Assembly (NCBI GenBank): GCA_003353795.1 | Contig: PIVY01000002.1 | Span: 12,552 to 76,551 of the forward strand | DNA length: 64,000 bases | Reading direction: 5' to 3' | Source of the DNA: a bacterium | GTDB lineage: Bacteria; Krumholzibacteriota; Krumholzibacteriia; LZORAL124-64-63 | Shown: positions 37,095-57,944 of the stretch, piece after piece | Layout: every line of letters starts with the position of its first letter | How positions within the stretch are numbered: the first letter of the stretch is position 1 | Position numbers and translations under genes: made by a program | The notes under the pieces: generated by a model | Told to the model about the DNA's origin: nothing | Seen by the model: the letters and a program-made list of their open reading frames with translations, nothing else | The model's database searches: none

Positions 37095-39887
37095 TCATCG
37101 GGGGAGATGTCCGACCTCCAGTTCGTAGGTCAACCAGGTGAGGTTCGCCCCGGAATCTGCTGCGATGTGGCGGCGGCGGACCTCGCTGAGCGCGTCCCAC
37201 GCGCCGGTCAGCCCCGCGCCGCGGGTGCGTGCGAGGAACTCGCTCATGAACGCCGCCGCGGCGGCGTCCTCGATGGTCCAGCGGGCGGCGATCACGCCCG
37301 CAGCGCCGGCGTCCGTGAAGGCATCGGCGAGGGACGGTCCGGTCACGGTTCCGATCGCGTGGCCCGAGGCGCTCCGGCAACTGGAGAGCACCACCAGCTC
37401 GCAGCCGGAGAGGTCCCGGCCCAGGATGTCGGCAAAGGTGAGCCGGTCACCGACGGGATCGTGATCGGCCGGGTCGGCGGCGCAGGGCAGGTAGCTGCGG
37501 TAGGGCATCTCCGGGTCATGGGTGGCGTGGCCCGCGAGGTAGATCATGCGGGCCCGGGGCAGGTGCTCGAGGATGGCCTGCTTGCGGGCGGCGGCGTCCA
37601 TCAGCAGCACGGGGTCGGGCAATCGCGCGGCGGCCAGCTCGGCCTCGACCCGGACGTACGGCAGGGAGCGGAGCGATGGGCGCTCGCGCTTCAGGGACGA
37701 CGAAAGCTCCGGCACGCCGACCACGCAGCTCAGGCGGTTGTCGCTTGCCGCGGTGGGCCCGTCGTCCACGAGCCGCAGGTAGGCCGTCTGCCAGCGCGCC
37801 GCGAGGGGCTGATAGTCCGCCGGATCGCCGAGATTGCAGGCCTCGAGCGCCAGCGGATCCACTGCTGCGGTGGTGGCGATGAGCAGGCGGCCGCCCGTGT
37901 CGGCCCGCACCCAGTCCGGCATGAGAACCTCGGTGACCTCGGCGAGCTCTCGCGCCAGCTCGCGGGATACGGGCGCGTGCGGCGTGGCTACCCCCTCGGC
38001 GAGGCGTAGAGGTACCACTGCCAGCAGGGGCGCCACGGCGTTCGCCGGGATCGAGTCGCAGGCGACGCTGCCGTCGATGATCTGCCAGCGGAGCACCTGG
38101 TCGCCGAGCCGGGCATACACCAGCGCCCGGTCGTCGCCGGTTCGCGTCCAGTCGGCGAGCTCGTCGGCCTCGCTGCGGCCAAAGGCCAGCAGGCGCTCCA
38201 CCGTGCCGCCTGCGCCGGTGACGTGGTGGGTGGTCGCGTATCGTCGGAGTTGTCGCCACGCCAGTTCGACGGCGAGGCCGCCGCGCGGATCGTCGGCGAA
38301 GTGGCGGTGGAGCTGCTCACGGAATCCGTCGAGGCGGCTCAGCATGAGGTACACCTCGACCCGCTCGCCCCAGGCCGAGAGCCTGGTCAACAGGTCGGCG
38401 AGAGCCGCGTCCGCGTGCACTGCAGCGAGGCTGGCGTCGCCCTGCAGCTCGGCGATCTGCAGCGCGAGGCGGCTAGTCTCGAAGCTCGGCGGCCCCGCGT
38501 CGACGGACCTGGCCAGGTGAATCGCGGCGCTGTCCGCCCGTCCCGCCGCCACGTGGCCCGACGCGATGATGGTGTGGAGGCGGCGGCCGTGGTCGCCGAG
38601 GCCTTCCCGCCGGACGTAGGCGAGGCCCTCGTAGGCAAGGGCGATGGCGCGGCGGTGCTCCCCCCGCTCGACGAGCCAGGATGACCAGTCGGCCAGGACG
38701 GTGGCGTAGTCGTAGTTCCGCGGCAATGAGGTCGTCAACTCGGCGAGGCACGCGTAGACCGAGTCCGCCGCGGCATGCCGACCCACGTGTGTCAGGTAGC
38801 CAGCCTGGGTGCGGAGGGTGACCGCCAGGTAGCTGGCCTGCCGCGGTTCGGCATTCAGGAGCGTGACCTGCCCGAGCAGCAGTTCGGCCCGCGGCAGTCT
38901 GCGGCCGACCAGGTCCCAGCAGCCGAGGTCAGCGTGGAAGGCGAGCCTGGCCGCCAGGAAGCGGACCTCGATGTATCCGGCGTCGAGCCGGCGCGCCACG
39001 GCCACGGCCTCGTCGTAGTGCTCGGCCGCCAGGCTGAGCTCGCCGCGACCGCGATGGTAGGCGGCCAGGATGGTGTGGATCCGGCCGGCCTGGGCGGGGA
39101 GTCGGGCTGCGAGGGCTAGTTCGAGGGCCTCGTCGGCCAGCAGCATGGCGGTGTCCCGGCGGCCGGCAGCGAGACGGTCGTCGCAGAGCGTTCCGAGCAT
39201 ATGGCTGAGCTGGGGCGTGAGTCCCGCCTCGCGAGCGAGGCGGATTCCGCGGTAGAGGTGCGCCCGCTTGCGGTGGTCCTGGCCGGCGTCGGCGGACAGT
39301 TCGACCATCCGGCTCTCGATATAGGTCTCGGACCAGGGGCAGCCGGCGAGGGAATCGGATAGGGCCTGCATGGCTCGGTACTTCTCGTCGACCGGGGCGT
39401 CGGTGGTCCGGTGGACGCGCATCACCTCATTCTTGAGGCGGGTCACGCGCAGGCCTTCGCTCGTCGGGTGCTCGCGCAGGTAGCGGACCAATGTCTGTGG
39501 ACCCTGCGAGTGACCGCGGTCGGCGACGATGGCGGCCAGGCGTTCGATGGCCGGCATCGTCTGCGCCAGTGACGATTCGTAGGCTGCGAGAGAGGTGTCG
39601 TCGATCGAGTCGATGATCAGGCCGACGTGGTCGATGAGCTGATGCGCATCGAGCGCGTCGCAGACCGCGGCGAGCTCGTCGTCGGTGCCGGAGACCAGGG
39701 CGTCGGCGAGGCGGGGGTCGAGGTTGGGCGCATGGCGGATCAGGATCGCGCCGGGAGCTTCGGCACCGGTGAGGCGCATGAGGACGATCACGGCCACGAC
39801 GACCACGATCGACGCGGCGGCGATCGACCATTTCGAAAGGGAACCGTGCCGGTGGGTGAAGGCCATCATCACGGGGTCACGGTTCAC
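37095..39887 (-). CDS. Membrane-anchored TPR-repeat protein with a C-terminal CHAT (caspase-like) peptidase domain.
   Basis: A GTG start at 39887 overlaps the anti-sigma stop as GTGA. The N-terminal TM segment is 'WSIAAASIVVVVAVIVLMRL'. A long TPR-like helical region follows. The C-terminus has 'YLAGHATHD' and 'VVLSSCRSASG', the CHAT His/Cys dyad. Confidence 0.75.
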   Translation of the reverse strand: MNRDPVMMAFTHRHGSLSKWSIAAASIVVVVAVIVLMRLTGAEAPGAILIRHAPNLDPRLADALVSGTDDELAAVCDALDAHQLIDHVGLIIDSIDDTSLAAYESSLAQTMPAIERLAAIVADRGHSQGPQTLVRYLREHPTSEGLRVTRLKNEVMRVHRTTDAPVDEKYRAMQALSDSLAGCPWSETYIESRMVELSADAGQDHRKRAHLYRGIRLAREAGLTPQLSHMLGTLCDDRLAAGRRDTAMLLADEALELALAARLPAQAGRIHTILAAYHRGRGELSLAAEHYDEAVAVARRLDAGYIEVRFLAARLAFHADLGCWDLVGRRLPRAELLLGQVTLLNAEPRQASYLAVTLRTQAGYLTHVGRHAAADSVYACLAELTTSLPRNYDYATVLADWSSWLVERGEHRRAIALAYEGLAYVRREGLGDHGRRLHTIIASGHVAAGRADSAAIHLARSVDAGPPSFETSRLALQIAELQGDASLAAVHADAALADLLTRLSAWGERVEVYLMLSRLDGFREQLHRHFADDPRGGLAVELAWRQLRRYATTHHVTGAGGTVERLLAFGRSEADELADWTRTGDDRALVYARLGDQVLRWQIIDGSVACDSIPANAVAPLLAVVPLRLAEGVATPHAPVSRELARELAEVTEVLMPDWVRADTGGRLLIATTAAVDPLALEACNLGDPADYQPLAARWQTAYLRLVDDGPTAASDNRLSCVVGVPELSSSLKRERPSLRSLPYVRVEAELAAARLPDPVLLMDAAARKQAILEHLPRARMIYLAGHATHDPEMPYRSYLPCAADPADHDPVGDRLTFADILGRDLSGCELVVLSSCRSASGHAIGTVTGPSLADAFTDAGAAGVIAARWTIEDAAAAAFMSEFLARTRGAGLTGAWDALSEVRRRHIAADSGANLTWLTYELEVGHLPR

Positions 39888-40744
39888 TCATCACCGTGAC
39901 GCGCGAGGATGGCCGCCGCGCGCGCGGCAACGGCCGATGGCGCGTGTCCGGCAAGCTGCTGGAGTGTCGGCAGGGCGTCGTCGGCATGGCCCAGGTCCAG
40001 CTGCACGATGGCCAGGTTCAGCAGCGTGGCTGGCTCCGTGTCGCCCGCCGCGATGGCGTCCTGTAGGAGAGCCTGCGCCCGTTCGAACTCTCCGCCGCGG
40101 TAGGCGACCACGGCGGCTGCCACAAGGACGGTCTCCGCGTCGGGGTAGCGCCGCAGGGCGTCCGTGGCAAAGGTGCGGGCGGTGGAGACCTCGTCCAGGG
40201 CGAGGTAGCCGCCGATCAGCCACATCGCGGCCGAGGGGTCGTTTGCCGAGTCGTGGTAGCGGTCGGCCAGGGCCTGCACGGAGGCCACGAGCGCCGAGTC
40301 TTCGGCGATGCCGCGCAGCGCCGGGCCGGCCTCGGGTTCGCCGACGGCGCCGGGGAAGACCATGGCGCCACCGTGCCGATCGGCCAGGACCCCGGCGATG
40401 GGGCCGACCAGTTCCGGCGCCAGCGGCGGCGGGTCGACGACGGGCGATACGATCAGGAACACCAGCACTGCGGCCATTGGCAGTCCCACGATCGCCGCCC
40501 AGCGCCGACGGGCCACGCGGGGTCTGACGCTGCCGCTCGTGCTGGCCAGAATGGTCGCCACCATCGAGGCCGGCGCGGCGAGCCCCTTCCGGGCGCGGAA
40601 TTCACGGCTCGTCGCCTCCGCCTCGAATACCGCATCCCGGCAATGCCGGCAGGACGCGAGGTGATCGCGTTGCCCTCGGCTCAGGCCGGACTCGCCGTGA
40701 TCGGCCAGCCGCGCCAGGAGTGCCGGGGACAGGTGCACGTTCAC
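39884..40744 (-). CDS. Anti-sigma factor with an N-terminal zinc-finger anti-sigma domain, one TM segment and a C-terminal TPR-like domain.
   Basis: A GTG start at 40744 overlaps the sigma-factor stop as GTGA. 'HLASCRHCRD' is the zinc-finger motif. The TM segment is 'WAAIVGLPMAAVLVFLIVSPVV'. The C-terminus is TPR-like. The Arg/Pro-rich N-terminus in the table ORF is a shadow of the sigma-factor gene. Confidence 0.7.
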   Translation of the reverse strand: MNVHLSPALLARLADHGESGLSRGQRDHLASCRHCRDAVFEAEATSREFRARKGLAAPASMVATILASTSGSVRPRVARRRWAAIVGLPMAAVLVFLIVSPVVDPPPLAPELVGPIAGVLADRHGGAMVFPGAVGEPEAGPALRGIAEDSALVASVQALADRYHDSANDPSAAMWLIGGYLALDEVSTARTFATDALRRYPDAETVLVAAAVVAYRGGEFERAQALLQDAIAAGDTEPATLLNLAIVQLDLGHADDALPTLQQLAGHAPSAVAARAAAILARHGDE

Positions 40745-41640
40745 GACTTTGCCTCCAGCCCGAGGACGAGACGGCCGGCGCTGACGCCGTCGGCGACGCC
40801 GAAGGCCTTGCGGAGCTTCCGCAGGGCCCGTTCGACCACGGTGTAGGCCTGCCGCTGGTTCTTCAGCTTCATTTCCGACGCGATCTGGCGGGCCGACAGG
40901 TTGCGGCCGAAGCGCATGGCCAACGCCTGGCGCTCCTGCTCGTCGAGGCGGGCGAGTTCCGCGCGCATCCTGCTGAGCAAGTGGTCCCGCTCGTCGGTGT
41001 GCGACTCCGCCTCCGGCTCGATCTCGACGGTTCGGGACGAGGCCTCGTAGCGCACATGGTCCACGTACTCGAGCCAGCGACCCGAGGGCACGCCGAGGCG
41101 GTGGGCCTGGCGGTCGAAGCGCAGTCGACGGCGCGCACGGTGGTCCAGCTGTCCGTCCATGTCCGAGAGCAACGACAGGAAGTCTTCGTAGTCGAGCCGT
41201 GCGCCTTCCGATTGCATCCGGCCGTAGACCGCTTTCGACGGCCAGCCCTGGACGAAGAACAGCTCGAAGACCCGCTGGTCCGTGGCCGGACGGCGCAGGA
41301 TCGGTGCGGGCAGGCGCACACGGCCGCGTTCGCGGCGGAGGCGGTCGACGGCCGCGTTGCGGACGATGAGTACCAGCCAGGTCCCGAAGGACGAGCGGCC
41401 GTCGAACTGCTCGAGCTTGCCGCGGAAGAGGCACTCGAATACGTCGGCCACGACGTCGCGGGCGAGGTCGTGATCATGGAGATGTCTATGGGCGACGGAT
41501 AGGGCGAGGCCCGTATAGTCCGTCACGAGGTCGCGCCAGGCCTCCGTGGAGCCAGAGACGGCAGACTGGACCTGGGCGAGATCCTGGTGTCCTTGCAAGA
41601 GTGGTATCGCTCCGGTAGCTGCGGGGTTCGGCGCCGGCAA
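40741..41640 (-). CDS. Sigma-70-family (ECF-like) RNA polymerase sigma factor with a long insertion between regions 2 and 4.
   Basis: Region 2 is 'DVFECLFRGKLEQFDGRSSFGTWLVLIVRNAAVDRLRRER'. Region 4 is 'LDEQERQALAMRFGRNLSARQIASEMKLKNQRQAYTVVERALRKLRK'. At 299 aa it is longer than typical ECF factors. Confidence 0.7.
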   Translation of the reverse strand: MPAPNPAATGAIPLLQGHQDLAQVQSAVSGSTEAWRDLVTDYTGLALSVAHRHLHDHDLARDVVADVFECLFRGKLEQFDGRSSFGTWLVLIVRNAAVDRLRRERGRVRLPAPILRRPATDQRVFELFFVQGWPSKAVYGRMQSEGARLDYEDFLSLLSDMDGQLDHRARRRLRFDRQAHRLGVPSGRWLEYVDHVRYEASSRTVEIEPEAESHTDERDHLLSRMRAELARLDEQERQALAMRFGRNLSARQIASEMKLKNQRQAYTVVERALRKLRKAFGVADGVSAGRLVLGLEAKS

Positions 41641-41816
41641 ACGCCGTGGTTCCGCGACGATTGTAACACATACTCGCCGTGCGTGTAATCCTCGGGACTC
41701 GTCCGTCTATAGCTACCATAGTTGGGGGATGAGGGAGAGACGCCGTCGGGACCGTCCAGCCATCGGGGCTGGGCGGTCCTTTTTGGTATCGGCACGGGAA
41801 TCGATCCTGATTGGTC

Positions 41817-41845
41817 TTGACGGATCGCGCTCGTTGTCGTAATAT
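41817..41845 (+). promoter_or_regulatory. Sigma70-like promoter of the trp-aro supraoperon: TTGACG-N17-TAATAT.
   Basis: TTGACG is at 41817-41822, then a 17-nt spacer, then TAATAT at 41840-41845. This is about 55 nt upstream of the leader peptide start. Confidence 0.6.
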
Positions 41846-41896
41846 TAAACATCAAATTCAAGCGCGCCGAGGTGCGCGCCCCGTCCGGAACCCGGA

Positions 41897-41986
41897 ATGG
41901 ACCCGATGACCCGCATCCGCAGCATCCTGATCGCGACCGACAGCCACCGTTATTGGTGGTCCTGGCGCGATCTGCCTTGCGGATAG
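41897..41986 (+). CDS. trpL: trp leader peptide MDPMTRIRSILIATDSHRYWWSWRDLPCG, with three Trp codons within four codons.
   Basis: In-frame ATGs occur at 41897 and 41906. TGG TGG TCC TGG lies at 41954-41965 and the TAG stop at 41984. The peptide sits between the promoter and trpE, immediately upstream of the terminator hairpin. It is too short to appear in the ORF table. Confidence 0.7.
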   Translation: MDPMTRIRSILIATDSHRYWWSWRDLPCG

Positions 41987-42041
41987 GGGTCGTTCCGGAC
42001 ATCGAGACCAGCTGACAGACAGCCACCGGAACCGAAGCAGA

Positions 42042-42072
42042 CCCGCTATCCGCAAGGAGCGCGGGTTTTTTT
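42042..42072 (+). terminator. Intrinsic terminator (attenuator) in the trp leader, 40 nt upstream of trpE.
   Basis: CCCGCtatCCGCaaggagcGCGGG is followed by TTTTTTT. The segment 42046-42057 (CTATCCGCAAGG) is perfectly complementary to 41975-41986 (CCTTGCGGATAG) at the 3' end of the leader ORF, which is an alternative anti-terminator pairing. Confidence 0.7.
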
Positions 42073-42111
42073 GTGCCCGGCAATGGCGCCGGGCGAACAA
42101 GGAGCGACCCC

Positions 42112-43590
42112 ATGGTCACGCCCGGCCTCTCGGACTTCCTCGATCTCGCACGCGACGGACGCACGGCGCCCCTGCGCCGCCGCATCCCCGCCGACCTGGA
42201 GACGCCGGTCTCTGCGTATCTCAAGCTGGCGCCCCTCGGTGCGGTCTGTCTGCTGGAGAGCGTGGAGCAGGGGATCCAGGTGGGGCGCTACTCGTTCATC
42301 GGCCTGGCGCCGCGATGCGCGGTCACCATCGAGGGCGACGCGGTCACCGTTGAGCGGGGCGGCGTCACCGAAACCAGCGACCTCGATCCCGCCGCGCCCT
42401 TCGCCGCCATCCAGGCCGAGCTCGAGCGGGCGCTGGACCTGGCCACCGGTGATCTGCCCGGCCCTCTCGGCGCGGCCGTGGGCTACCTCGGCTGGGAAAC
42501 CGTCCGCTACTTCGAGCGTGTGCCGCTGCCCACCGAAGGCCACGACGGTCTGCCCGATGCGCGCTTCGTGTTCCCGTCGCAGCTGGTGGTGTTCGACCAC
42601 GTGAAGAGCGAGATCGAGGTGGCGGTGCTGCCGCCGACCGAGCTTGCCGCGGAACCGGGATACGCGGCGGCGCAAGAGCACCTCGACCGTCTGCTCGCCG
42701 CCCTGCGCAGCCCGCTGCCGGCCGGCGCCATGCCCGAGCCGTGCGACCCGCTGGAGCCGGCGTCGCCCGAGATCCCGCGCGAACGTTTCGAGGCCTCCGT
42801 CGAGACCGCTCGCGAGCACATCCTGGCCGGCGACGCCTTCCAGATCGTGCTCTCGCAGCGTCTGCGTGGCCGCACGGCGGCGCATCCGTTCACGGTCTAC
42901 CGCGCGCTGCGCATCCTGAATCCTTCGCCCTACCTCTTCTACCTCGACTTCGGCGACTCCCAGCTCATCGGTTCGTCGCCCGAATCGCTGGTGGCCCTGG
43001 AGGGCGACCGCGCCCAGGTCTGCCCCATCGCCGGCACGCGGCCTCGTGGCGCCACGCCGGCCGAGGACAGCGAACTGGAAGCCGAGCTGCTGGCCAGCGA
43101 GAAGGAGAGGGCCGAACACCTGATGCTGGTGGACCTCGGCCGCAACGACCTCGGTCGCGTCTGTCGGCCGGGGACGGTCCGTCCGTCGAGCTTCCAGCAG
43201 GTGGAGCGCTACAGCCACGTCATGCACCTGGTCTCGCGGGTGGACGGTCGATTGCGGGAAGGTCTGGACGGCTGGGACCTGCTGCGCGCCACCTTCCCCG
43301 CGGGCACTCTCAGCGGCGCGCCGAAGATTCGCGCCATGGAGATCATCGGGGAGCTGGAGGACCGTCGGCGCGGTCCCTACGGCGGCGCGGTGGGCTACTT
43401 CGCGCCCGGCGGCGACCTCGACCTGTGTATCGCCATCCGCACCCTCGTGATGCAGGGCGACCGCTGGTGGGCCCAGGCCGGCGCCGGCATCGTGGCCGAC
43501 AGCGATCCCGCCTTCGAGTACGAGGAGACCCTGCACAAGCTGCAGGCCGTGACCCGCGCGGTGACCCGCGCCGAAGGAGGTCTGGAGTGA
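42112..43590 (+). CDS. trpE: Anthranilate synthase component I.
   Basis: An ATG at 42112 follows GGAG. 'LLESVEQG..GRYSFIG' and the C-terminal chorismate-binding region are typical of TrpE. Confidence 0.9.
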   Translation: MVTPGLSDFLDLARDGRTAPLRRRIPADLETPVSAYLKLAPLGAVCLLESVEQGIQVGRYSFIGLAPRCAVTIEGDAVTVERGGVTETSDLDPAAPFAAIQAELERALDLATGDLPGPLGAAVGYLGWETVRYFERVPLPTEGHDGLPDARFVFPSQLVVFDHVKSEIEVAVLPPTELAAEPGYAAAQEHLDRLLAALRSPLPAGAMPEPCDPLEPASPEIPRERFEASVETAREHILAGDAFQIVLSQRLRGRTAAHPFTVYRALRILNPSPYLFYLDFGDSQLIGSSPESLVALEGDRAQVCPIAGTRPRGATPAEDSELEAELLASEKERAEHLMLVDLGRNDLGRVCRPGTVRPSSFQQVERYSHVMHLVSRVDGRLREGLDGWDLLRATFPAGTLSGAPKIRAMEIIGELEDRRRGPYGGAVGYFAPGGDLDLCIAIRTLVMQGDRWWAQAGAGIVADSDPAFEYEETLHKLQAVTRAVTRAEGGLE

Positions 43591-44180
43591 TGTTGCTCAT
43601 GATCGACAACTACGACAGCTTCACCTACAACGTGGTGCAGGCGCTCGGCGAACTGGGCGCCGAGGTGACCGTGCGGCGCAACGACGCCGTCTCGCCGGAC
43701 GAGGCGGCGGCCCTGGCGCCGGCGGGCCTCATCATCTCGCCGGGCCCCGGCACGCCCGCCGACGCCGGCGTCTCCGCCGCGCTCATCGAGCAGTTTGCCG
43801 GACGCGTTCCGGTGCTCGGCATCTGTCTCGGCCACCAGACCATCGTCGAGGTCTTCGGCGGACGGATCCAGCGGGCCGAGCGGGTGATGCACGGCAAGAC
43901 CAGCCCGGTCTACAACGACGGCCGCACCATCTACTCCGGTCTGGGCAATCCGTTCACGGCCACCCGGTACCACTCGCTCATCGCCGTGGAGGGCGACCTG
44001 CCCGAAGCGCTCGAGATCAGCGCCTACACCGCCGAGGGCGAGATCATGGGCGTGCGCCATCGCCAGCTCGCCATCGAGGGCGTGCAGTTCCACCCCGAAT
44101 CGGTGATGACGCCCGAGGGCGCCCAGCTCCTTGGCAACTGGCTGCAGATCTGCACCGCGACGGGAGCGGTGGCGACATGA
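43590..44180 (+). CDS. trpG: Anthranilate synthase component II (glutamine amidotransferase).
   Basis: An ATGA overlap joins it to the trpE stop, and GGAGG lies upstream. 'MLLMIDNYDSFTYN...GICLGHQ...HPES' are the class-I amidotransferase motifs. The long table ORF is an alternate-frame extension. Confidence 0.9.
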   Translation: MLLMIDNYDSFTYNVVQALGELGAEVTVRRNDAVSPDEAAALAPAGLIISPGPGTPADAGVSAALIEQFAGRVPVLGICLGHQTIVEVFGGRIQRAERVMHGKTSPVYNDGRTIYSGLGNPFTATRYHSLIAVEGDLPEALEISAYTAEGEIMGVRHRQLAIEGVQFHPESVMTPEGAQLLGNWLQICTATGAVAT

Positions 44181-45223
44181 ACGAGAATGTGATGAACGAC
44201 CTCCTCGCCGGACGTAGCCTCGATGCCACCGGCGCCGAGGCCCTCATGGGCGACATCATGACCGGCGCTCTGGACGCGGCTCGTCTCGGCGCCGTGCTGG
44301 CGGCGCTCCAGGTTCGGGGCGTCACGGCCGTCGAGCTCGGCGGCTTCGCCCGGGGCATGCGGGCCCGCGCTGTACCGGTCACCGCCGACTGCATCGACCG
44401 CGCCATCGACACCTGCGGCACCGGCGGCGACGGTCAGGGCACCTTCAACATCTCCACGGCCGCGGCGCTGGTGGCCGCCGCTGCGGGTGCGCCGGTGGCC
44501 AAGCACGGCAATCGCGCGGCCAGTTCCCTGTGCGGATCGGCCGATGTGCTCCAGGCCCTGGGCGTGAATCTGGACCTGGAGCCGGCCGCTCTGGGCCGCC
44601 TGCTCGACGAGGTCGGCATCGCCTTCCTGTTCGCACCGAATCACCACCCGGCCATGCGCCATGCCGTGCCGGTGCGGCGGTCGCTGGGCGTGCGCACGGT
44701 GTTCAACCTGCTGGGGCCGCTGACCAATCCAGCCGGCGTCCGTCGACAACTCCTCGGGGTGTACGCGCCCGAACTGGTGGACCTCATGGCCGGCGCCCTG
44801 CTCGAACTGGGCGCGGTGCGGGCGCTGGTGGTTCACGGCCACGACGGTCAGGACGAACTGGCGCTCACCGGCGAGACGCTGGTGGCCGAGATCGCGGACG
44901 GCAGCGTGACGCGACACACGGTGACGCCCGAGGATGCGGGACTGCAGCGGTGCGCCGCGGCCGACCTGGCCGGCGGTGACGCCGCGGCCAATGCCGACCT
45001 GATGCGCGGCGTGCTGACCGGCGAACCCGGACCGCGTACCGACGCCGTCCTTTTCAACGCGGGAGGCGCGCTCATGGCCGCCGATCTCGCCATCGATTTG
45101 CGCGAGGGCGTGGGTCTCGCGCGCGCGGCCGTGGGCGACGGCCGCGCCGCGACGCTGCTGGCCGATCTGGCCGCGGCTACCCACGACCTCGCGCGTGAAT
45201 CCAACGTGGGAGGCGAATCGTGA
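44177..45223 (+). CDS. trpD: Anthranilate phosphoribosyltransferase.
   Basis: An ATGA overlap joins it to trpG. 'CGTGGDGQGTFNISTAAA...KHGNRA' is the TrpD signature. Confidence 0.9.
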   Translation: MNENVMNDLLAGRSLDATGAEALMGDIMTGALDAARLGAVLAALQVRGVTAVELGGFARGMRARAVPVTADCIDRAIDTCGTGGDGQGTFNISTAAALVAAAAGAPVAKHGNRAASSLCGSADVLQALGVNLDLEPAALGRLLDEVGIAFLFAPNHHPAMRHAVPVRRSLGVRTVFNLLGPLTNPAGVRRQLLGVYAPELVDLMAGALLELGAVRALVVHGHDGQDELALTGETLVAEIADGSVTRHTVTPEDAGLQRCAAADLAGGDAAANADLMRGVLTGEPGPRTDAVLFNAGGALMAADLAIDLREGVGLARAAVGDGRAATLLADLAAATHDLARESNVGGES

Positions 45224-46026
45224 ACGGATTCCTGGAACGCGTCCGGGCCCAGAAGGAGGCCGAGGTCACCGTCGGTCAAGCCGGCCGCAGCCTGGCCGAT
45301 CTGCGCGCGGGGGTCGCCGACATGGCGCCGTGCCGCGATTTCCGCGGGGCGCTCACCGCGGGCAGCGACCGCATCATCGCCGAGGTGAAGCGCCGGTCGC
45401 CCAGCGTGCCGCAGTTCCTGCGACGGGAGCCGCCCGCCGAACTGGCCGCTCTTTACCACGAGGCCGGCGCCGCCGCGCTGTCGCTGGTGACCGACCGGGC
45501 CAATTTCGGCACGGGTCCGGCCGACATCGCACCCATGCGAGCGGCGGCGCCCCTGCCGCTCATCGCCAAGGACTTCATCATCGACCCCTGGCAGGTCCTG
45601 GCCTTGCGCGCCGCGGGCGCCGACGCCGTGCTACTCATCGCTCGATTGCTGGAGCCGAACCAGCTGGCCGACCTCCACGGACTCGCGCACGAGCTGGGTC
45701 TCGCCGCACTGGTGGAATGCCACACGGCGGGCGACCTGCGCGCCGCCCTCGCCGGCGGCGCCGACCTGGTGGGATTCAACAATCGAAACCTCGATACCTT
45801 CGAGGTCTCCCTGGACGTGAGCCGAGCCCTCCTGCCACAGGTGCCCGTGGGTTGCGCAGCCGTGGTGGAAAGCGGGCTGGCCGGACGGGCCGAGGTGGCG
45901 GCGCTGCAGGGCCTGGGCGCCACGGCGTTCCTGGTCGGCGGGTCGCTGCTCCAGTCGGATGATCCGGCCGCGATGCTGCGGGCCCTGCGAGGCGCCGACG
46001 ATTCGCGCCGCGAGGAGGTGTCGTGA
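45220..46026 (+). CDS. trpC: Indole-3-glycerol phosphate synthase.
   Basis: A GTG start gives a GTGA overlap with trpD. 'IIAEVKRRSPS' is the IGPS motif. Confidence 0.88.
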   Translation: MNGFLERVRAQKEAEVTVGQAGRSLADLRAGVADMAPCRDFRGALTAGSDRIIAEVKRRSPSVPQFLRREPPAELAALYHEAGAAALSLVTDRANFGTGPADIAPMRAAAPLPLIAKDFIIDPWQVLALRAAGADAVLLIARLLEPNQLADLHGLAHELGLAALVECHTAGDLRAALAGGADLVGFNNRNLDTFEVSLDVSRALLPQVPVGCAAVVESGLAGRAEVAALQGLGATAFLVGGSLLQSDDPAAMLRALRGADDSRREEVS

Positions 46027-46682
46027 TGCGACCGCTCGTGAAGATCTGCGGCCTGACCCGGCCCGAGGACGCGCGCCTCTGCCGCGACGCCGGCGCCGAT
46101 CTGCTCGGCGTCATCTTCGCCGATAGTCCGCGCCAGGTAACCGTTGGACAGGCCGCCGACATCCGCGCCGCCTGTAGCCACGCGCCCCTGGTCGGCGTGT
46201 TCACCGACGGAACGCCCACGGCCATCGCCGAGGTGGTGGCCGCCGTGGGGCTCGACCTGGTGCAGTTGCACGCCTGCGACGACCCTGCTCGCTGGGAGGC
46301 GGTGGGCCGGGCGTCCGGAGTGTCGGTGCTGCCGGCGGTCACGGCCGACCGTGCCGACGACGCGGTCTCCGCCATGCTCGCGCGGCCCGACCTCTTGCTG
46401 GCGGGCCTGCTCCTCGACCTCCCCAAGCGTACCCGCGACGCCGGATCCGACGGCCGGGTCACATTGATCGAGACGGCGCGGCGTTGCCGCGATCGCGGTA
46501 TCCGCGTCATGCTTGCCGGCGCGCTCGATGCTGCTACCGTGCCGCTCGCCATGCGCGAGGTGAAACCGTTTGGGTTGGACGTTTGCCGCGGCGTGGAATC
46601 GGCGCCCGGTGTGAAGGATCCCGAACTGGTCGCACGATTCCTCGCCGCCGTCGATCATCCGGAGGTGGATCATGTCCACTGA
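46026..46682 (+). CDS. trpF: Phosphoribosylanthranilate isomerase.
   Basis: An ATGA overlap joins it to trpC. '[12 protein letters not shown]' is the PRAI motif. Confidence 0.88.
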
Positions 46683-47850
46683 GATTACTCGCGCCGGCCG
46701 CTTCGGCCCTTTCGGCGGACAGTACGTGCCGGAGACCCTCATGCCGGCGATCACCGAACTGGCCGCCGCTCACATCGAGGCGCTCGCCGACCCGGCGTTC
46801 GCCGCGGAACTCGATGCTCTGCTGGCCGACTTCGCCGGCCGGCCCACCCCGCTGTATCGCGCGCGCCGACTCGAGTCGGTGTTGCCCGGGGAAGCGCAGG
46901 TGTGGCTCAAGCGGGAAGACCTGGTCCACACCGGCGCCCACAAGCTCAACAACTGCCTCGGTCAGGTGCTGCTGGCGCGGCGCATGGGCAAGCGGCGCAT
47001 CATTGCCGAGACCGGCGCCGGCCAGCATGGCGTTGCCACCGCCGCGGTATGCGCCCACTTCGGCCTGGAGTGCACCGTCTACATGGGCGAGACCGACATG
47101 CAGCGGCAGCGTCCCAACGTGCAGCGCATGCGGCTGTTCGGCGCCGAGGTCCGGCCCGCGCTCACCGGCAGCCGCACCCTCAAGGACGCCACCAGCGAGG
47201 CCATCCGCGACTGGGTGGCCTCGGTGGCGACGACCCACTACATCATCGGATCGGTGGTCGGTCCGCATCCGTATCCGTCGCTGGTGGCCGACTTCCAGGC
47301 GGTGATCGGTCGCGAGGCGCGCGAGCAGATCTTCGCCGCCGCCGGCCGCCTTCCCAGCCACGCCCTGGCCTGCATCGGCGGCGGCAGCAATGCCATGGGA
47401 TTGTTCCGCGGCTTCCTCGATGACGGCGACGTCCGGCTGGTCGGCGTGGAGGCCGGCGGCGGTCCCGAGGGGCATGCTGCGACTCTCGGAAAGGGCGATC
47501 CCGGGGTGCTGCACGGCACGCTCTCGCTCCTGCTACAGGATCAGGACGGCCAGGTCGCGCCGGTGCACTCCATTTCCGCCGGCCTCGACTACCCGGGGGT
47601 CGGCCCCCAGCTGGCGCACCTCAAGGACAGCGGCCGGCTCGCCGTGGCCAGCGCCACCGATGCCGAGGCGCTGGACGCGCTGCGGTCGCTCTGCCGGCTC
47701 GAAGGCATCTTGCCGGCCCTGGAAACGGCCCACGCTCTGGCGCACCTGCAGACGCTCGCTGCCGATCCCGATGCCGATCTCATCGTGGTGAACCTTTCCG
47801 GGCGCGGCGACAAGGACCTCGACCACTTGCCCCCGGAGGTGTCGGCATGA
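46672..47850 (+). CDS. trpB: Tryptophan synthase beta chain.
   Basis: An ATG at 46672 follows GGAGG. '[13 protein letters not shown]...HTGAHKLNN' contains the PLP lysine motif. Confidence 0.92.
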
Positions 47851-48650
47851 CCGCTCTCGAACGCGCGTGCCGCGACCGCCGCCAGCGAGGCGAGAAGGCG
47901 CTGGTGCCGTTCCTCACCGCGGGCTTCCCGGACGAGCGCACGTCGCTGGAACTGCTGGCCGCCTGCGCGCGGCGCGGCTGCGAGGTGGTGGAGATCGGCG
48001 TGCCGTTCTCCGACCCCGTGGCCGACGGCCCCGTGATCCAGCAGGCCAGCCAGGCCGCCCTGGCCGGCGGCATGACCCTGCGCCGAGCCCTCGACCTGGT
48101 GACCGAACTGAAGGACGAGGCGGTGCAGCCGGTGATGATGACCTACCTAAATCCGGTGCTGCGCCTGGGTCTGGACGAGTTCGCACGGCGGTCTGCGCGC
48201 GCCGGTTGCGCCGGCGTGATCGTGCCCGACCTGAGCAGCGAGGAAACGGCGCCGCTGCGCGACGCCCTCTCCGGCGAAGGCGTGGCCCTCGTCGACCTGG
48301 TGGCACCGACCACCACCGAGGATCGCATGGCCGCGATCACCGCCACCGCCGGCGGCTTCCTCTACCTGGTGGCGGTGGCTGGCGTGACCGGCACGACCAG
48401 CGCGAATGCTGCCGACCTGCAGTCCTTCACCGACCGCGTCCGCCGGCACACCGACCTGCCGCTCTACGTCGGCTTCGGCATCGACGGCGCCGTGAAGGCC
48501 CGCGAGGCCGTCCAGGCCGCCGACGGCGCCATCGTGGGCAGTGCGCTCATCCGGCGCCTGCTCGACAACCCGGATTCCGGCGGCGTGACAGCCGTCCTCG
48601 ACCTGGTCGACGAAATGCTCGCCGCCCTTTCCCGGAGGACCACCTCATGA
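47847..48650 (+). CDS. trpA: Tryptophan synthase alpha chain.
   Basis: An ATGA overlap joins it to trpB. '[11 protein letters not shown]...[17 protein letters not shown]' is the TrpA signature. Confidence 0.9.
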
Positions 48651-49699
48651 TGATCGTGACCATGCAGCCCGGCGCCTCGGTGGCCCAGATCGGCGCCGTG
48701 TTGCGGCACTGTCAGGAGCGCGACCTGCGACCGGTACCCAGCCACGGAACCGAGCGCACGGTGATCGGCGTCATCCATGCCGATCAACGCACCGACCTGT
48801 CCGCCGTGGCGTCCCTGCCGGGCGTGGACCAGGTCACGCCCGTGTCGGCCGCGCTCCAGCTGGTGAGCCGCGAGTTCCGCGACGAACCCACCGTGGTGCA
48901 CGTCGGCGGCGTGGCCATCGGCGGCCCCGAGTTCGTGGTCATGGCGGGCCCGTGTTCGGTGGAGACCGAGGCGCAAATCAATGCCTGTGCCCGTCAGGTG
49001 GGCGCCTGCGGCGGTCGCATCCTGCGAGGTGGCGCCTACAAGCCGCGCACGTCGCCGTACAGCTTTCAGGGACTGGGCGAGGAGGGGCTGCAACTCTTGA
49101 CCGCGGCCGGCCGCGCGGTGGGATTGCCCACGGTCACCGAGGTCATGCACCCCGATCTGGTGGAGACAGTGGCGAGGTATGCGGATATCCTGCAGATTGG
49201 CGCCCGCAACGTGCAAAACTACGCGTTGTTGTCGGCAGTGGGCAGGGTGCGCAAGCCCGTCCTTCTCAAGCGTGGGCTCATGACCACCATCGAGGAACTG
49301 CTCATGGCGGCCGAGTACATCCTGGCCGGAGGCAATGGACAGGTGATCCTCTGTGAACGCGGCATCCGCACCTTCGAGACGTCCGTGCGCAACACGCTGG
49401 ACGTGTCGGCCGTGCCGGTGATCAAGAGCCAGAGTCACCTGCCGGTGATCCTCGACCCGAGCCACGCTGCCGGCAAGCGCGAGTTCGTGCCGGCGCTGGC
49501 GCTGGCGTCGCTCGCCGCCGGCGCCGACGGCATCATGGTGGAGATGCATCCGGTGCCCGAGGAGGCGTACAGCGACGGTCGGCAGAGTCTCGACTTTCCC
49601 GGCTTCGCGGCGCTCATGGATTCGTTGCGGCCCGTGGGCGCGGCCCTGGGCCGACACGTGGCCGCGGTCCGGCCCGATCTGACGGAGGCGTCTGCATGA
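48647..49699 (+). CDS. aroG: 3-deoxy-7-phosphoheptulonate (DAHP) synthase, type I-beta, with an N-terminal regulatory (ferredoxin/ACT-like) extension.
   Basis: An ATGA overlap joins it to trpA, and GGAGG lies upstream. '[11 protein letters not shown]...[18 protein letters not shown]' is typical of DAHPS I-beta/KDO8PS-like enzymes. An N-terminal domain of about 80 aa precedes the catalytic barrel. The long table ORF is an alternate-frame extension. Confidence 0.85.
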
Positions 49700-51024
49700 G
49701 AGCGGTGGTGCGCGGCGCCCGAGGCGTGAACGGCGAGTTGAGTCTGCCGGGCGACAAGTCCCTGGCTCACCGCGCCCTCCTCTTCGGCGCGCTGGCCGAC
49801 GGCGAGATGCGCGTACGCGGACTGCCACCCGGCGGCGACGTTGCGAGCACGCGGAGCTGTCTCGAAACTCTCGGCGCACGTTTCGAGGACATCCCCGGCG
49901 GCGTGCGCGTGCTGCCGCCCGAGTCATGGCGTACCGGCGAGACGCTCGATTGCGGCAACTCCGGCACCACGACTCGCCTGCTCGCCGGCGTGCTCGCGGG
50001 CCTCGGCCTGGCGACCACCCTTGACGGCGACGCCTCGCTTCGCCGTCGTCCCATGCGCCGCGTGGCCGATCCGTTGCGCCTGCTTGGCGCGTCGGTGACG
50101 ACCCGCGAGGACGGCTGCCTGCCCCTGATAATCGCACCGCCGCGCGACCGGCTCGACGGCATCCGCGTGGAACTGGCCGTGGCCAGCGCACAGGTCAAGA
50201 GCGCGATCCTGCTGGCGGGATTGTTCGCCACCGGTCCGACCACCGTGGTCGAGCCGGCCCTGAGCCGCGACCACACCGAGCGCATGCTCGCGGCCATGGG
50301 TGTCGACGTGCAGCGCGACGGCCTGGCGGTGACCGTTCCCGGGCGACGCGACGACGGTGCCGCTCCCCGCCTTCACGGCCTGACGCTGGACCTGCCGGGC
50401 GACATCTCCACGGCGGCATTCTACCTCGCTGCCGGCGCCATGCGGCCGGGGTCGTCGGTGATTCTCCGGGGTGTGGGGATCAACCCGTCGCGCACCGGAA
50501 TCCTGGATGCCCTTCACGGCATGGGGGCGGCCGTGAAGCTGGCCAACGAACGCACGGCCGCCGGCGAGCCCGTGGCCGATCTGGCCACCGAGAGCTCGCC
50601 CATGCGGGGCATCTCGATCGGCGGCGACCTGGTGCCGCGCCTCATCGACGAGCTTCCCATTCTCGCAGTGGCGGCCACGGCGGCCGATGGCGCCACCGAG
50701 GTACGCGACGCCGCCGAGTTGCGGCACAAGGAATCCGACCGCATCGCGACCACGGTGACCCAGCTCGCACGCCTGGGCGCCGACATCCACGAACGGCCGG
50801 ACGGTTTCACCATTCACGGTCCTTGCCGCTTGCGCGGCGCCGAGGTGGATGCCGGCGGCGATCATCGTCTGGCCATGGCATTGGCCGTGGCGGCGCTGTC
50901 GGCCGAGGGCGAAACGGTGATCTCCGGCGCGGAGGCGGCCTCGGTCTCGCATCCCGACTTCTGGTCGGACGTGGCGCGCCTCGCCGGTCCCGATGCCGTG
51001 CGCCTCGAGGAGGAGAACGCGTGA
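49696..51024 (+). CDS. aroA: 3-phosphoshikimate 1-carboxyvinyltransferase (EPSP synthase).
   Basis: An ATGA overlap joins it to the upstream gene. '[20 protein letters not shown]' is the canonical N-terminus. Confidence 0.9.
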
Positions 51025-51875
51025 CCGTTGGCGGCGCTTCCCGCGTATACGGCCTCATCGGCGACCCCGTGGCGCACAGCCTGTCCCCGCGCCTGATGAA
51101 CGACGCCTTCGCGCGGCTGGGCATCGACGCGGTGTACGTGGCCTGGCGCCTGGCGTCCGACTACGTGGGCTCGGCCGTGGCCGGCCTCGTGACCCTGGGC
51201 GTGGCCGGCGTCAACGTGACCTACCCGCACAAGGCCGCGGTGCTGCCTCACGTGGCGTCCCGCTCCAACGCGGTCGCAACGCTGGGCGCGGCCAATGTAC
51301 TGGCCCTCGACGCCGACGGTTTCCGGGCCGAGAACACCGACGCCGGGGGGACCGCACTGGCCTTGACCGAGTTGCTCGACTGGCCGGTGACCCACCGTCG
51401 CGTGGTGATCCTCGGCGCCGGCGGCGCGGGCCGGGCGGCGGCGCTGGGCCTGCTGGTCGCGGGAGCCGAGCGCGTCGACTTCCTGGTGCGCGACCGTTCG
51501 CGTGCCGAAGCCGGACTTGTCGGCTTGCGCGCGGCTCATGAAGCGGTCGCCGTCCACGTTCTCGACAGCCGCGACGCAGCCGGGTGCCTGGACGCTGCCC
51601 ACCTCGTGGTGCAGGCCACCCCGGTGGGTCTCGACGATCCCGGCGCTGCTTCCCTAATCGACCCGGCACAGGCGCCGAACGCCGCGGGATTCGAACTGGT
51701 CTACGGCGAACGCCCCACCGCGTTCGCCGCCGCCTGGCGCGGCGCCGGTCGACCGTGTCTCGACGGACGCGATCTGCTGGCGGCCCAGGCCCACCTGGCT
51801 CTTCATGTCTGGCTGAACGACGCGCCCGACCTGGCCGACATGCGCCGGGTCATTGCGCCCGAGGAGGTCGCGTGA
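51021..51875 (+). CDS. aroE: Shikimate dehydrogenase.
   Basis: A GTG start gives a GTGA overlap. 'VYGLIGDPVAHSLSP' and 'ILGAGGAGRA' are the SDH motifs. Confidence 0.85.
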   Translation: MTVGGASRVYGLIGDPVAHSLSPRLMNDAFARLGIDAVYVAWRLASDYVGSAVAGLVTLGVAGVNVTYPHKAAVLPHVASRSNAVATLGAANVLALDADGFRAENTDAGGTALALTELLDWPVTHRRVVILGAGGAGRAAALGLLVAGAERVDFLVRDRSRAEAGLVGLRAAHEAVAVHVLDSRDAAGCLDAAHLVVQATPVGLDDPGAASLIDPAQAPNAAGFELVYGERPTAFAAAWRGAGRPCLDGRDLLAAQAHLALHVWLNDAPDLADMRRVIAPEEVA

Positions 51876-53545
51876 CCACGACGAAACGCAACGTGGTGCT
51901 CACCGGATTCATGGGCACCGGCAAGACCGCCGTCGGCCGCGTTCTGGCCGACCTGCTCGGCCGCCCCTTCTGCGATCTGGATGCGGTGATCGAGGAGGCG
52001 GCCGGCTGTCCGGTGGCCGAGATCTTCGCGGCCGAAGGCGAGGACGGTTTCCGACGCCGCGAGCGGGAGGCCGCCGCCGCGGTTGGTGCCCGGCGCGGCC
52101 TGGTGGTCGCCACTGGCGGCGGCACCCTCATCGACCCGGCCAATCGCGAGGCACTCTCCGCCGGCGGCGACCTGGTCCTCCTGACCACTGCGGCGCCCGA
52201 ACTGGCCGACCGCCTCGGCGACGGCGCCGGGCAACGCCCGCTGCTGGCTGGCCACGATGACCTGCGCGCCCGCATCGCTGAACTCCTCGCCGAGCGCGCG
52301 TCCGTCTATGCCGGCTGCGACCACGAATTCGACACGACAGCGCTCGATGCCGACGAGGCCGCCGCCCTGCTGGCTGCGCGCCTGGCCACGCCGTTGACGG
52401 AGATCGACATCCCCGTTCCCGGCGCCGCCGGTCTGCCCGTGCTCGCTGCCCGCGAGCTCACCGGATCGCGCGTGGTCACCGGCCGCGGCACGGTCTGTCG
52501 GCTCGGCGCCGAACTGCGCGACCGCGGTGTCACCGGCCGCGTGGTGCTGGTCATGCCCGAGGTGGTGCGCGATCACTACCTTCCGCGCCTGGTCGCCTCT
52601 CTCGACGCCGCCGAACTGTCGTGGGGCCTGCTGGGAATTCGCGACGGCGACCAGGAGAAGACCTTCGCCCAGGTGGAGGATCTGGTGGACGCCCTGGCCG
52701 GCCTCAGCGCCGATCGTGGCACCTGCGTGGTGGCCGTGGGCGGCGGCGTGACCGGCGACCTGGTGGGCTTCAGCGCCGCGGTCTACATGCGCGGCGCGGC
52801 CCTGGCCATGGTGCCGACCACCCTGCTGGCCCAGGTCGACGCCCACATCGGCGGCAAGACCGGCGTCAACGGTCGCCGCGTCAAGAACCTGGCCGGCTGT
52901 TTCCATCCGCCCATTCTGGTGGTGGCCGACCCCTGCATGCTGGCCACCCTGCCGGACCGTGAGCTGGCCGGCGGCATGGCCGAGGTGGTCAAGTCGGCGC
53001 TCATCGGCGACCCCGCGCTCTTCGACCAGCTCGAGGCGGCGCTTGTCGATCCGGCCGAGAATCGCGACGGCGATCCGCGCCGCGACCCAGAACTGCTCGA
53101 GACCTGTGTGGCGGCTTGCGCCGCCGTGAAGGGCGGCGTGGTCAGTCGCGATCCCTGGGAACTGGGGGAGCGGCGCTTGTTGAACCTGGGCCACACTCTC
53201 GGCCATGCCCTCGAAGCCCAGAGCGCCTACGGTCTGAGCCATGGCGAGGCCGTGTCCATCGGCACCGTGGCGGCCCTGCAAGTGGCCGTGGCGCGCGGCG
53301 CCGCCGAGGCCGATCTCCTCGACCGTACCCGCCGCCTGCTGCAGGCCTGCGGGCTGCCCACCACACCGCCCGAATACGATGCCGCCGACCTCCTCTCGCG
53401 ATTGCATCTGGACAAGAAGCGGCGTGACGGTCGACAGTTCTTCGTGCTGCCACTCGCCGCGGGCGACGTGGTGGTCGTGGACGACGTCGACGATGACGAG
53501 GCCCTCGCGGCCCTGGCCAGGGAGCAAGCGTGCGCATCCTCGTGA
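51872..53545 (+). CDS. aroKB: Bifunctional shikimate kinase / 3-dehydroquinate synthase (AroK-AroB fusion).
   Basis: A GTG start gives a GTGA overlap, and GAGGAGG lies upstream. The N-terminal ~175 aa '[15 protein letters not shown]' is the shikimate-kinase P-loop. The C-terminal ~380 aa '[14 protein letters not shown]...HIGGKTGVN' is DHQ synthase. One uninterrupted 557-codon frame spans both. Confidence 0.85.
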
Positions 53546-53991
53546 TTCACGGACCGAACCTGAACCTCTTGGGCATCCGCGAGCCGGAAGTCTACGGCAA
53601 GACGACCCTGCAGGAGATCAACCGGAGCCTGCGGGCGCGCGGCGAGGAGATCGGCGCGGCCATCTCCGATTTCCAGAGCAACCACGAGGGCGACATCGTC
53701 GACCGCATCCAGGCGGCGGCCCTCGATATTCCTCGGGCCGACGGCATCATCCTCAACCCGGCGGGCTACACCCACACCAGCGTGGCCATCCGCGATGCGC
53801 TCACGGCGGTGAGCCTGCCCACCTGGGAGATCCACATCTCCGATCCGTCGAAACGCGAGAAGTTCCGCCACGTGTCGCTGGTGCGCGACATCTGCGTGGG
53901 CTGCACCGCCGGCCGCGGCTCGGGCGGCTACATCGAGGCACTGGACGGGCTCGTGGCACACTTGAATTCCGGCGGGGAGGCGTCGTCATGA
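53530..53991 (+). CDS. aroQ: Type II 3-dehydroquinate dehydratase.
   Basis: A GTG at 53530 gives '[14 protein letters not shown]...HISD', the type II DHQase signature. It overlaps the 3' end of aroKB by 16 nt. Confidence 0.88.
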
Positions 53992-55073: not shown

Positions 55074-55476
55074 GGCCAGCCAGTGGGAAGCCGGGCGGCG
55101 GTCATCCGACCTGCCCCGCGATCTTGTAGAGTACAAAGGTCGAGCACCCCGTCCTGCCGCGCAGTGCCTCGAGCCGCACCTCATCGAGCTGAATCCGGCA
55201 CCGGCGCACGGACTGCAGTTTCCGCCAATTGGGGGCGTCATTGTTGCGGAGCCAGGCCGTTCGGGCTCCGATTCCAGCCTGTGAATCGAAGGCACACTGG
55301 GCAGGGCGCGCACTCGTCGGCAAGCCTGGTCGGCGTCATCCGGTTCATTATGTAACTCATATAACAACAAAGTTTTGCGGTTGCCGTGGGACGTGTCGTT
55401 CACGATGGCACGACCGCTGCTTTGCCGGCTGGTGAAGCAACGGTTCCTCAACCATCGACTCTGTGGAGGCAACACC

Positions 55477-56160: not shown

Positions 56161-56165
56161 TCACC

Positions 56166-57936: not shown

Positions 57937-57944
57937 GCCAGAAC

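Follow-up and report, generated by a model that had tools for sequence, protein, structure and literature searches.

Which signal governs the genes of tryptophan (Trp) and aromatic biosynthesis in Candidatus Krumholzibacteria and relatives, a lineage represented by metagenomes only, and how many of these genes does that signal reach? The question is raised by the window analysed here, a stretch of 64,000 nucleotides (nt) from a bacterium of the Krumholzibacteriota (contig PIVY01000002.1 of assembly GCA_003353795.1, positions 12,552 to 76,551 of the forward strand), in which a compact leader segment at 41817-42111 directly precedes trpE, the first gene of a trp-aro operon. A sequence-only reading had proposed that this segment has the layout of ribosome-mediated attenuation, and this is supported by relatives of the locus, by folding, by covariation and by the exclusion of the T-box, TRAP and Trp_leader types of regulator. 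On the basis of sequence and modelled RNA structures, the segment is very probably a transcription attenuator of the ribosome-mediated (leader-peptide) type, with charged tRNA-Trp as the signal sensed.

The elements of the leader lie in order between one promoter and trpE (coordinates in Table 1). The sigma70-like promoter recognized in the sequence-only reading is present at 41817-41845 and is the sole plus-strand promoter-like site in 41000-43000, a region that gives 0.2 such sites when shuffled. Downstream of it, an open reading frame (ORF) of 26 or 29 codons with the run TGG TGG TCC TGG (TGGTGGTCCTGG), i.e. three codons for the operon's own amino acid within four, was likewise found as described. 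Its product is M(DPM)TRIRSILIATDSHRYWWSWRDLPCG; the second of the two in-frame starts, which yields the 26-codon form MTRIRSILIATDSHRYWWSWRDLPCG, is favoured because the resulting MTR(I/L) N-terminus is common to three related leaders (L001, L083 and L163 among the loci introduced below). Between this ORF and the first structural gene stands the claimed intrinsic terminator with its seven T residues, which has a fold energy of -15.5 kcal/mol and ends 39 nt before the trpE ATG.

An antiterminator is encoded across the same segment. Positions 41975-41986 (CCTTGCGGATAG) are the exact reverse complement of 42046-42057, as had been noticed at the outset, and no shuffled leader among 5000 contains a complement of that length (mean 5.1, maximum 11). 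The full antiterminator is a 23-bp interrupted helix in three blocks (folded from 41976 onward, the RNA has an energy of -40 kcal/mol), and its 5' strand includes a conserved core, GGATAG, at 41981-41986. A further pairing had been suggested between CGTTCCGG (41991-41998) and CCGGAACC (42026-42033): it does form in the extended antiterminator, but with seven of the eight nucleotides paired. The leader's stop codon lies inside the antiterminator strand (GGA UAG), as it also does in L161, L165, L166 and L169, and a terminating ribosome would therefore mask this strand directly; in L167 the GGA-UAG stop is present with the antiterminator strand upstream of it. The leader as a whole folds better than its shuffles (z = -5.5; 0 of 200 fold as well).

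A third structure, the '1:2' protector hairpin, also engages the antiterminator strand. In it the ribosome-binding-site region and the 5' half of the leader pair with the 3' half, inclusive of the antiterminator strand, and the Trp codons fall within the apical stem CCACCG-uuau-UGGUGG; the hairpin persists without a ribosome in a transcript cut at 42055. Within this untranslated fold GUCCGGAAC (41883-41891), which overlaps the weak Shine-Dalgarno region of the leader, pairs with GUUCCGGAC (41992-42000), and this latter segment alternatively pairs with CCGGAAC (42026-42032) in the antiterminator, i.e. one strand has two partners. The pairing at the leader ribosome-binding site would presumably block further leader initiation as well. 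CCGGAACC occurs twice (41883-41892 and 42026-42033), with both copies complementary to CGTTCCGG(AC) at 41991-42000; the first overlaps the ribosome-binding-site region and the second lengthens the antiterminator in the stalled-ribosome fold.

The behaviour of these structures was explored by folding under constraints. A ribosome was assumed, from general knowledge of toeprinting, to protect about 12 nt past the first base of its A-site codon, with no base pairs formed across it and the RNA downstream of it folded; the folds are equilibrium folds plus folds of truncated transcripts. For the window, a ribosome with its A site at any one of the three Trp codons gives the terminator a pair probability of 0.00, with the antiterminator formed in its place, and a ribosome at the stop codon gives it one of 0.98. 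Thus, the upstream complement is able to disrupt the terminator in these folds, as the proposal of mutually exclusive structures implies, and the covariation across relatives described below supports that proposal. In truncated transcripts a stalled ribosome leaves 10 of the 11 nt in the 5' arm of the terminator paired with 41981-41990, versus none in its absence; without a ribosome the antiterminator strand is held in the protector hairpin and the terminator arm is free. The contrast between the stalled and the stop-codon states is visible at equilibrium in eight of 14 loci with the attenuator.

These loci come from a comparison of 15 trpE loci with TrpE proteins 58-87% identical to that of the window (L001, L081-L083, L161-L170 and the window itself). 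The closest species-representative genome is a Candidatus Krumholzibacteriia metagenome-assembled genome (L001), with a TrpE 76% identical and the same gene order from trpE to aroKB, and more than 120 relatives of TrpE are found at 57% identity or above, several of them named Candidatus Krumholzibacteria or Krumholzibacteriia by their sources. A promoter, a Trp-rich short ORF and a hairpin with a T tract precede trpE in 14 of the 15 loci, so that the predicted retention of Trp codons and terminator in related genomes is borne out. In all 14, the promoter has the form TTGAC(A/G)-N16-18-TAnnnT at the equivalent position and the leader has three to four Trp codons within four to six codons (examples in Table 1); beyond the Trp cluster the peptide sequence is poorly conserved.

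The RNA pairing is conserved in a manner that the peptide is not. In an alignment of 12 attenuators anchored on the GGATRG core, the antiterminator core GGAT(A/G)G, from the 3' part of the leader ORF, pairs with C(T/C)ATCC of the terminator 5' arm through six pairs formed in 12 of 12 sequences, one position being, without exception, A:U in one half of the set (six) and G:C in the other (six). Of the cells of the 14-pair antiterminator helix 82.7% are paired, and sliding the 3' partner by one to three columns lowers this to 32-44%. The outer stem of the terminator has 93% of cells paired across the 12 and shows G:C, A:U, U:A and G:U at one position; its covariation score is reached by 0 of 500 shuffles. 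The frame that the GGATRG core occupies in the leader ORF is 0 in the window, where it reads Gly-stop, 1 in L081 and L082, and 2 in L001 and L083; all three frames are thus represented, and the core is therefore conserved as RNA rather than as peptide. Of the geometric arguments, spacing is the strongest: 14-20 nt separate the last Trp codon and the first nucleotide of the antiterminator in 13 of 14 loci (14-15 nt in nine), which would place the antiterminator strand just past the front edge of a Trp-stalled ribosome.

Several observations weigh against this reading. In the DNA of the window, which is 68% G+C, a count over all six frames gives 14 runs of at least three TGG in four codons, and such a run is not rare by itself; the weight of the Trp codons therefore rests on their position and conservation rather than on their presence. 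The window leader has a weak Shine-Dalgarno match (GGAA/GGA, 5-12 nt 5' of 41906), whereas the structural genes all have GGAGG; several relatives do better, with GGAG in L001 and L162 and GGAGGAG in L082. In six of the 14 loci the terminator is very stable (-23 to -27 kcal/mol) and wins every equilibrium fold, with the antiterminator appearing only in truncated folds, where the leader strand already pairs with 8-11 nt of the 5' arm; pairing in a transcript cut before the terminator 3' arm would be the usual kinetic argument for these loci. Without a ribosome the equilibrium terminator pair probability in the window is only 0.2-0.3, and termination in that state would therefore rely on the 5'-to-3' order of folding. 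The protector pairing is predicted in the minimum-free-energy (MFE) folds of the window, L081 and L083 but not in L001 or L082, which may work as a simpler two-state switch. Anchoring the alignment on GGATRG inflates its invariant columns, though not the A:U/G:C covariation, and an unanchored MAFFT alignment of five leaders, submitted to RNAalifold, recovers the terminator and not the antiterminator. Finally, L168 (TrpE 63% identical) is the sole one of the 15 loci to lack a recognisable attenuator, which may have been lost or replaced there. In the L168 region (3280-3525) there is a weak covariance-model match, a 30-codon ORF with WW ends 20 nt before trpE with no terminator, and a terminator-like hairpin follows the upstream sigma54-activator gene.

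Taken as an attenuator, the segment would operate as follows. Transcription would begin at about 41852 from the sigma70-type promoter, and a ribosome would translate the 26- or 29-codon leader while RNA polymerase proceeds to the terminator. When Trp is scarce, the ribosome would stall with one of the three UGG codons in its A site and its leading edge at about 41966-41975, opening the protector hairpin and freeing the antiterminator 5' strand; this would pair over 23 bp with the newly made 3' strand, sequester the terminator 5' arm and permit read-through into trpE and 12 further genes. When Trp is plentiful, the ribosome would reach the UAG and mask the antiterminator strand, and the terminator with its U7 tract would form and end the transcript near 42072. 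In the absence of translation, the antiterminator strand would stay in the 1:2 hairpin and termination would again prevail. The sequence elements, the mutually exclusive structures, the conservation, covariation and spacing in relatives and the gene content of the operon are observed; from them we infer the stalling, the timing of ribosome relative to polymerase and the response to Trp.

Table 1. Features of the trp leader and operon in the window, with leader peptides of related loci
Feature	Position	Strand	Remarks
Sigma70-type promoter	TTGACG 41817-41822; TAATAT 41840-41845	+	17-nt spacer; predicted transcription start ~41852
5'-proximal GC hairpin	41862-41879	+	GCGCGC-cgaggt-GCGCGC; predicted by folding
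'1:2' protector hairpin	41883-42000	+	MFE and centroid structure of 41852-42080
Leader peptide ORF	ATG 41897 or in-frame ATG 41906 to TAG 41984-41986	+	29 or 26 codons
Regulatory Trp codons	41954-41965	+	TGG TGG TCC TGG; proposed ribosome stall site when charged tRNA-Trp is scarce
Antiterminator 5' strand	41976-41998	+	Last three sense codons, stop codon and 12 nt beyond; from stalled-ribosome folds
Antiterminator 3' strand	42026-42056	+	CCGGAAC, GACCC, CTATCCGCAAG; spans whole terminator 5' arm
Intrinsic terminator	Stem 42041-42066; T7 42066-42072	+	ACCCGC/GCGGGT outer stem, inner UCC/GGA stem, GCAA loop
GC-rich hairpin	42074-42095	+	(U)GCCCGGC-aauggc-GCCGGGC(G); between terminator and trpE Shine-Dalgarno; no T tract; -17.3 kcal/mol
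trpE Shine-Dalgarno	42099-42104	+	AAGGAG
trpE start	42112-42114	+	ATG
13-gene operon	42112-55073	+	Pfam and NCBIfam matches
Leader peptide, L161			...SWRWWSWRGLSCG
Leader peptide, L001			...GWWWWRSVPVDGGRRPD
Leader peptide, L163			...STWWWWHGALAGRGRGPDG
Leader peptide, L165			...NWWYWPGLSSG
Leader peptide, L083			...RQWWPWWIMRRADGSCGSAL
Leader peptide, L170			...GWWWPLTLSLAECGRIETGSA

How far would this control extend? The operon behind the attenuator runs in the order trpE, trpG, trpD, trpC, trpF, trpB, trpA, DAHP synthase, aroA, aroE, an aroK-aroB fusion, aroQ and aroC, in agreement with the count of 13 made from sequence alone. It encodes the whole shikimate pathway and the Trp branch, with a DAHP synthase bearing an N-terminal ferredoxin-like domain and an aroQ of the type II dehydroquinase family. 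All twelve gene junctions overlap or abut (the TGA of trpA overlaps the ATG of the DAHP synthase gene), with a GGAGG-type Shine-Dalgarno at each start. A consensus scan of 42112-55073 gave no internal sigma70-like promoter and no terminator, and the only plus-strand terminator-like match in the scanned range comes after aroC, at 55218-55236; the genes thus form a trp-aro supraoperon, contiguous on one strand with no intervening terminator. The genes under control are apt for a sensor of Trp, as trpEGDCFBA come first. The encoded proteins contain 0.48% Trp (21 residues in about 4330), with zero in TrpD, TrpA and DAHP synthase, which fits enzymes needed during Trp starvation.

Among the relatives, the DAHP synthase with the ferredoxin-like domain follows trpA in every case examined, and the aro extension beyond it varies, being limited to the DAHP synthase gene in L166 and to this gene and aroA in L165 and L167, and longer in others. 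Other relatives carry aroE, aroKB and aroC in differing orders, and in L166 aroC is on the opposite strand beside a chorismate mutase/prephenate dehydrogenase gene. L162 (GCA_942491225.1, 11479-21482) has an intact leader and terminator, and many of its trp and aro genes are fragmented in a way that resembles frameshift errors of assembly.

It is against this background that a narrower scope has to be considered, in which the attenuator governs mainly the trp genes and the six aro genes are kept on by one or more promoters within coding sequence, as in the aro supraoperon of Bacillus subtilis. The physiological case for it is that shutting the common pathway at high Trp would starve the synthesis of Phe and Tyr; in addition, operon length behind trpA varies among relatives, with the short forms noted above, and in some relatives, L170 and L083, trpA and the DAHP synthase gene lie 90-100 nt apart, which leaves room for a promoter. 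Set against these points are the tight, Shine-Dalgarno-bearing junctions of the window, including that of trpA with the DAHP synthase gene, the empty scan for internal promoters and terminators, and the invariable position of DAHP synthase after trpA; moreover, attenuation is usually leaky, and basal read-through could supply the aro enzymes. We regard the narrower scope as unlikely, albeit as an alternative that deserves to be kept in view. At the other extreme, charged tRNA-Trp, acting through the single attenuator, might serve the entire aromatic pathway (all seven shikimate steps together with the Trp branch) as its only signal at the level of transcription, with Phe and Tyr having input only through allosteric control of the operon DAHP synthase via its ferredoxin-like domain. 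This proposition we consider doubtful and advance tentatively. If true, such single-sensor logic would differ from that of any studied model organism and would be conserved across a candidate phylum without cultured members. An attenuator that senses Trp alone ahead of the whole shikimate pathway raises the question of how cells escape starvation for Phe or Tyr.

Returning to attenuation in cis, the products of the leader might have an additional function. The terminated RNA (about 220 nt) or the leader peptide could also act in trans, by analogy with rnTrpL and peTrpL of Sinorhizobium meliloti (PMC6614838, PMC7298713): the terminated RNA would look stable and be highly structured, and the MTR(I/L) N-terminus of the peptide recurs in some relatives. 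On the other hand, nothing in the analysis indicates a target, the peptide is poorly conserved outside the Trp cluster, and all trp genes are in one operon, so that there is no second trp operon to coordinate, unlike in the Sinorhizobium rationale. A role in trans is accordingly judged improbable.

A more radical departure from leader-peptide attenuation would be a leader ORF that is untranslated, with the Trp codons incidental to an RNA switch that binds a protein or ligand, such as a T-box, a TRAP-like element or another riboswitch. The weak Shine-Dalgarno match, the chance origin of TGG runs in G+C-rich DNA and the highly structured RNA would all be compatible with this. The searches for such elements returned little. 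Rfam at gathering score gave no family match in the whole window, and at E <=10 neither a T-box nor a Trp_leader match in 41700-42200; the only leader-type match was Leu_leader, with 13.8 bits against a gathering score of 50, and matches to ctRNA and CRISPR-DR9 were also weak and of the generic-hairpin kind. Membership of the Rfam Trp_leader family (RF00513, the enterobacterial trpL) was rejected at both thresholds. The T-box family (RF00230), brought into consideration by a vague T-box likeness of 'GGTGGTCCTGGCG', was likewise rejected at E <=10, and the site in question precedes the terminator by about 80 nt. A TRAP site, which would comprise 9-11 (G/U)AG triplets at 2-3 nt spacing that overlap the antiterminator, was rejected because 41852-42111 holds only five scattered GAG/TAG and no regular array. 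Furthermore, 14 of 15 loci retain an intact ORF with three to four in-frame Trp codons in a cluster despite differing peptide and nucleotide surroundings, the spacing from Trp codons to antiterminator is fixed at about one ribosome half-footprint, and L001, L162 and L082 have a good Shine-Dalgarno. A switch of this kind is thus most improbable. As for a chance arrangement, with an unrelated small ORF beside the terminator of something else, a TGG run does have a probability of about 4% of falling in a 200-nt stretch of the plus strand, but the conservation, covariation and spacing across 14 loci, the 0 of 5000 shuffles for the complement and the fold z of -5.5 effectively refute it.

With translation-dependent attenuation as the preferred reading, the leaders can be treated as an RNA family. 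A covariance model built from the 12 aligned attenuators recovers L163, which was outside the training set, with 34 bits (E ~3e-6), and has no match upstream of trpE in about 155 loci from other phyla; across the 170 fetched loci its matches are confined to the clade, and the RNA family is therefore clade-specific. Our own scan nevertheless produced further Trp-leader candidates in other phyla, where trpE is preceded by a terminator and, upstream of that, by a short ORF containing WW or WWW; being missed by the clade model, they would represent separate RNA families or independent inventions. The candidate loci, from metagenome-assembled genomes, are L015 and L106 (labelled Bacteroidetes), L009 (Victivallales), L006 (Spirochaetales), L037, L084, L086, L092, L136 and L144. 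The sequence-only reading had held that attenuation would not be assumed in this lineage; given candidates before trpE in several other phyla, this was not borne out and any surprise is modest. Trp leader peptides seem to be much more widespread than the Rfam family suggests.

Two additional hairpins of the leader were left out of the mechanism because they are inconsistently present in relatives. The GC hairpin after the transcription start exists as had been described, save that it occupies 41862-41879 and not 41863-41880; an equivalent is found in some relatives only, with sequences that are not conserved, and it may stabilise the 5' end of the transcript. The GC-rich hairpin after the terminator has counterparts in L081, L083 and L161 and in no other relative. 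Further upstream, a strong terminator-like hairpin (14 bp, 10 of them G:C) followed by TTTTT lies at 41748-41785 on the plus strand, about 30 nt 5' of the -35 element of the trp promoter and between a divergent ECF-sigma gene (40741-41640, minus strand) and the trp leader. The nearest 4.7 kb or so upstream hold no plus-strand gene that it might terminate; its role could be to shield the trp promoter against read-in or to bring a small transcript to an end, and Rfam gives only generic hairpin matches for it (ctRNA_pGA1, ftsZ-DE). The flanking genes are unrelated to the attenuator: upstream, at 37095-41640 on the minus strand, they encode an ECF-type sigma factor, a TPR protein and a 930-aa CHAT-domain protein, and downstream, at 55386-60599 on the plus strand, an ExbD/TolR-like protein and a TonB-dependent receptor with a TonB C-terminal domain.

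The attenuator provides a well-supported regulatory annotation for Candidatus Krumholzibacteria and relatives, and a new clade-specific attenuator RNA family lacking from Rfam, with the core GGAURG/CYAUCC and a leader stop that is often within the antiterminator. The mechanism itself is that of the textbook, and the finding leaves the understanding of it unchanged. A practical consequence concerns gene callers, which can mis-start trpE inside the terminator and never call the leader ORF. Thus, in L170 the database trpE starts at a GTG within the attenuator terminator (ACCCACTTCC...GGAAGTGGGT, then T6; 10001-10046), and the true start is the ATG at 10046 (conserved MVTP), 45 nt downstream of the called one; leader ORFs are uncalled in all fetched records.

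The best-studied precedent is the trp attenuator of Escherichia coli and other enterobacteria, which we describe from general knowledge and the introduction of PMC6614838. Each lies directly before trpE and has a short ORF in its leader in which Trp codons are clustered. A 2:3 antiterminator and a 3:4 intrinsic terminator with its U tract are common to the two, a 1:2 protector like that of E. coli is predicted for the window, and in both segment 2 would be masked once a ribosome reaches the stop codon. They differ in that the E. coli trpL shows neither sequence nor covariance-model similarity to the window leader and has 14 codons with two Trp, versus 26-29 codons with three Trp in four; in that the stop codon is just before the antiterminator strand in E. 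coli and inside it in the window; in the length of the window antiterminator with its three blocks; and in the whole shikimate pathway that the window operon carries, unlike the E. coli trp operon. No TrpR-type operator was seen at the window locus, where no search was aimed at one.

Outside the enterobacteria the same mechanism operates in the trpL of Sinorhizobium meliloti trpLE(G), Corynebacterium glutamicum and Streptomyces venezuelae (PMC6614838, PMC1262725, PMC4833913). These Alphaproteobacteria and Actinobacteria belong to other phyla and their RNA sequences are unrelated to that of the window; the design is therefore widespread and has been re-used with unrelated sequences. In Sinorhizobium only trpE(G) is under the attenuator, whose RNA has an additional role in trans, whereas the attenuator of the window heads a single 13-gene operon.

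The aro supraoperon of B. subtilis has the composition aroFBH-trpEDCFBA-hisC-tyrA-aroE. It resembles the window operon in that trp genes and aro genes of the common pathway are combined in one long unit, with a terminator/antiterminator switch just before trpE. The sensor in B. subtilis is the TRAP protein, which acts on 11 (G/U)AG repeats (PMC4027176), and the window leader has no such repeats. Moreover, the B. subtilis attenuator is internal, so that the upstream aro genes escape it, whereas in the window the trp genes come first and all aro genes are downstream of the attenuator. With a gene order so unlike that of the Bacillus supraoperon, the resemblance is therefore one of organisation, not homology.

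As to the wider distribution of such systems, Lopatovskaya and colleagues reportedly predicted leader-peptide systems in further phyla in 2010. A survey of the same year held them to be known only in Proteobacteria and Actinobacteria, plus a newly found case in Firmicutes (PMC2965389), and the picture of trp regulation used here draws on that survey, on PMC6614838, PMC4833913 and PMC1262725 and on general knowledge. The window attenuator adds to the evidence that leader-peptide attenuation extends beyond Proteobacteria and Actinobacteria.

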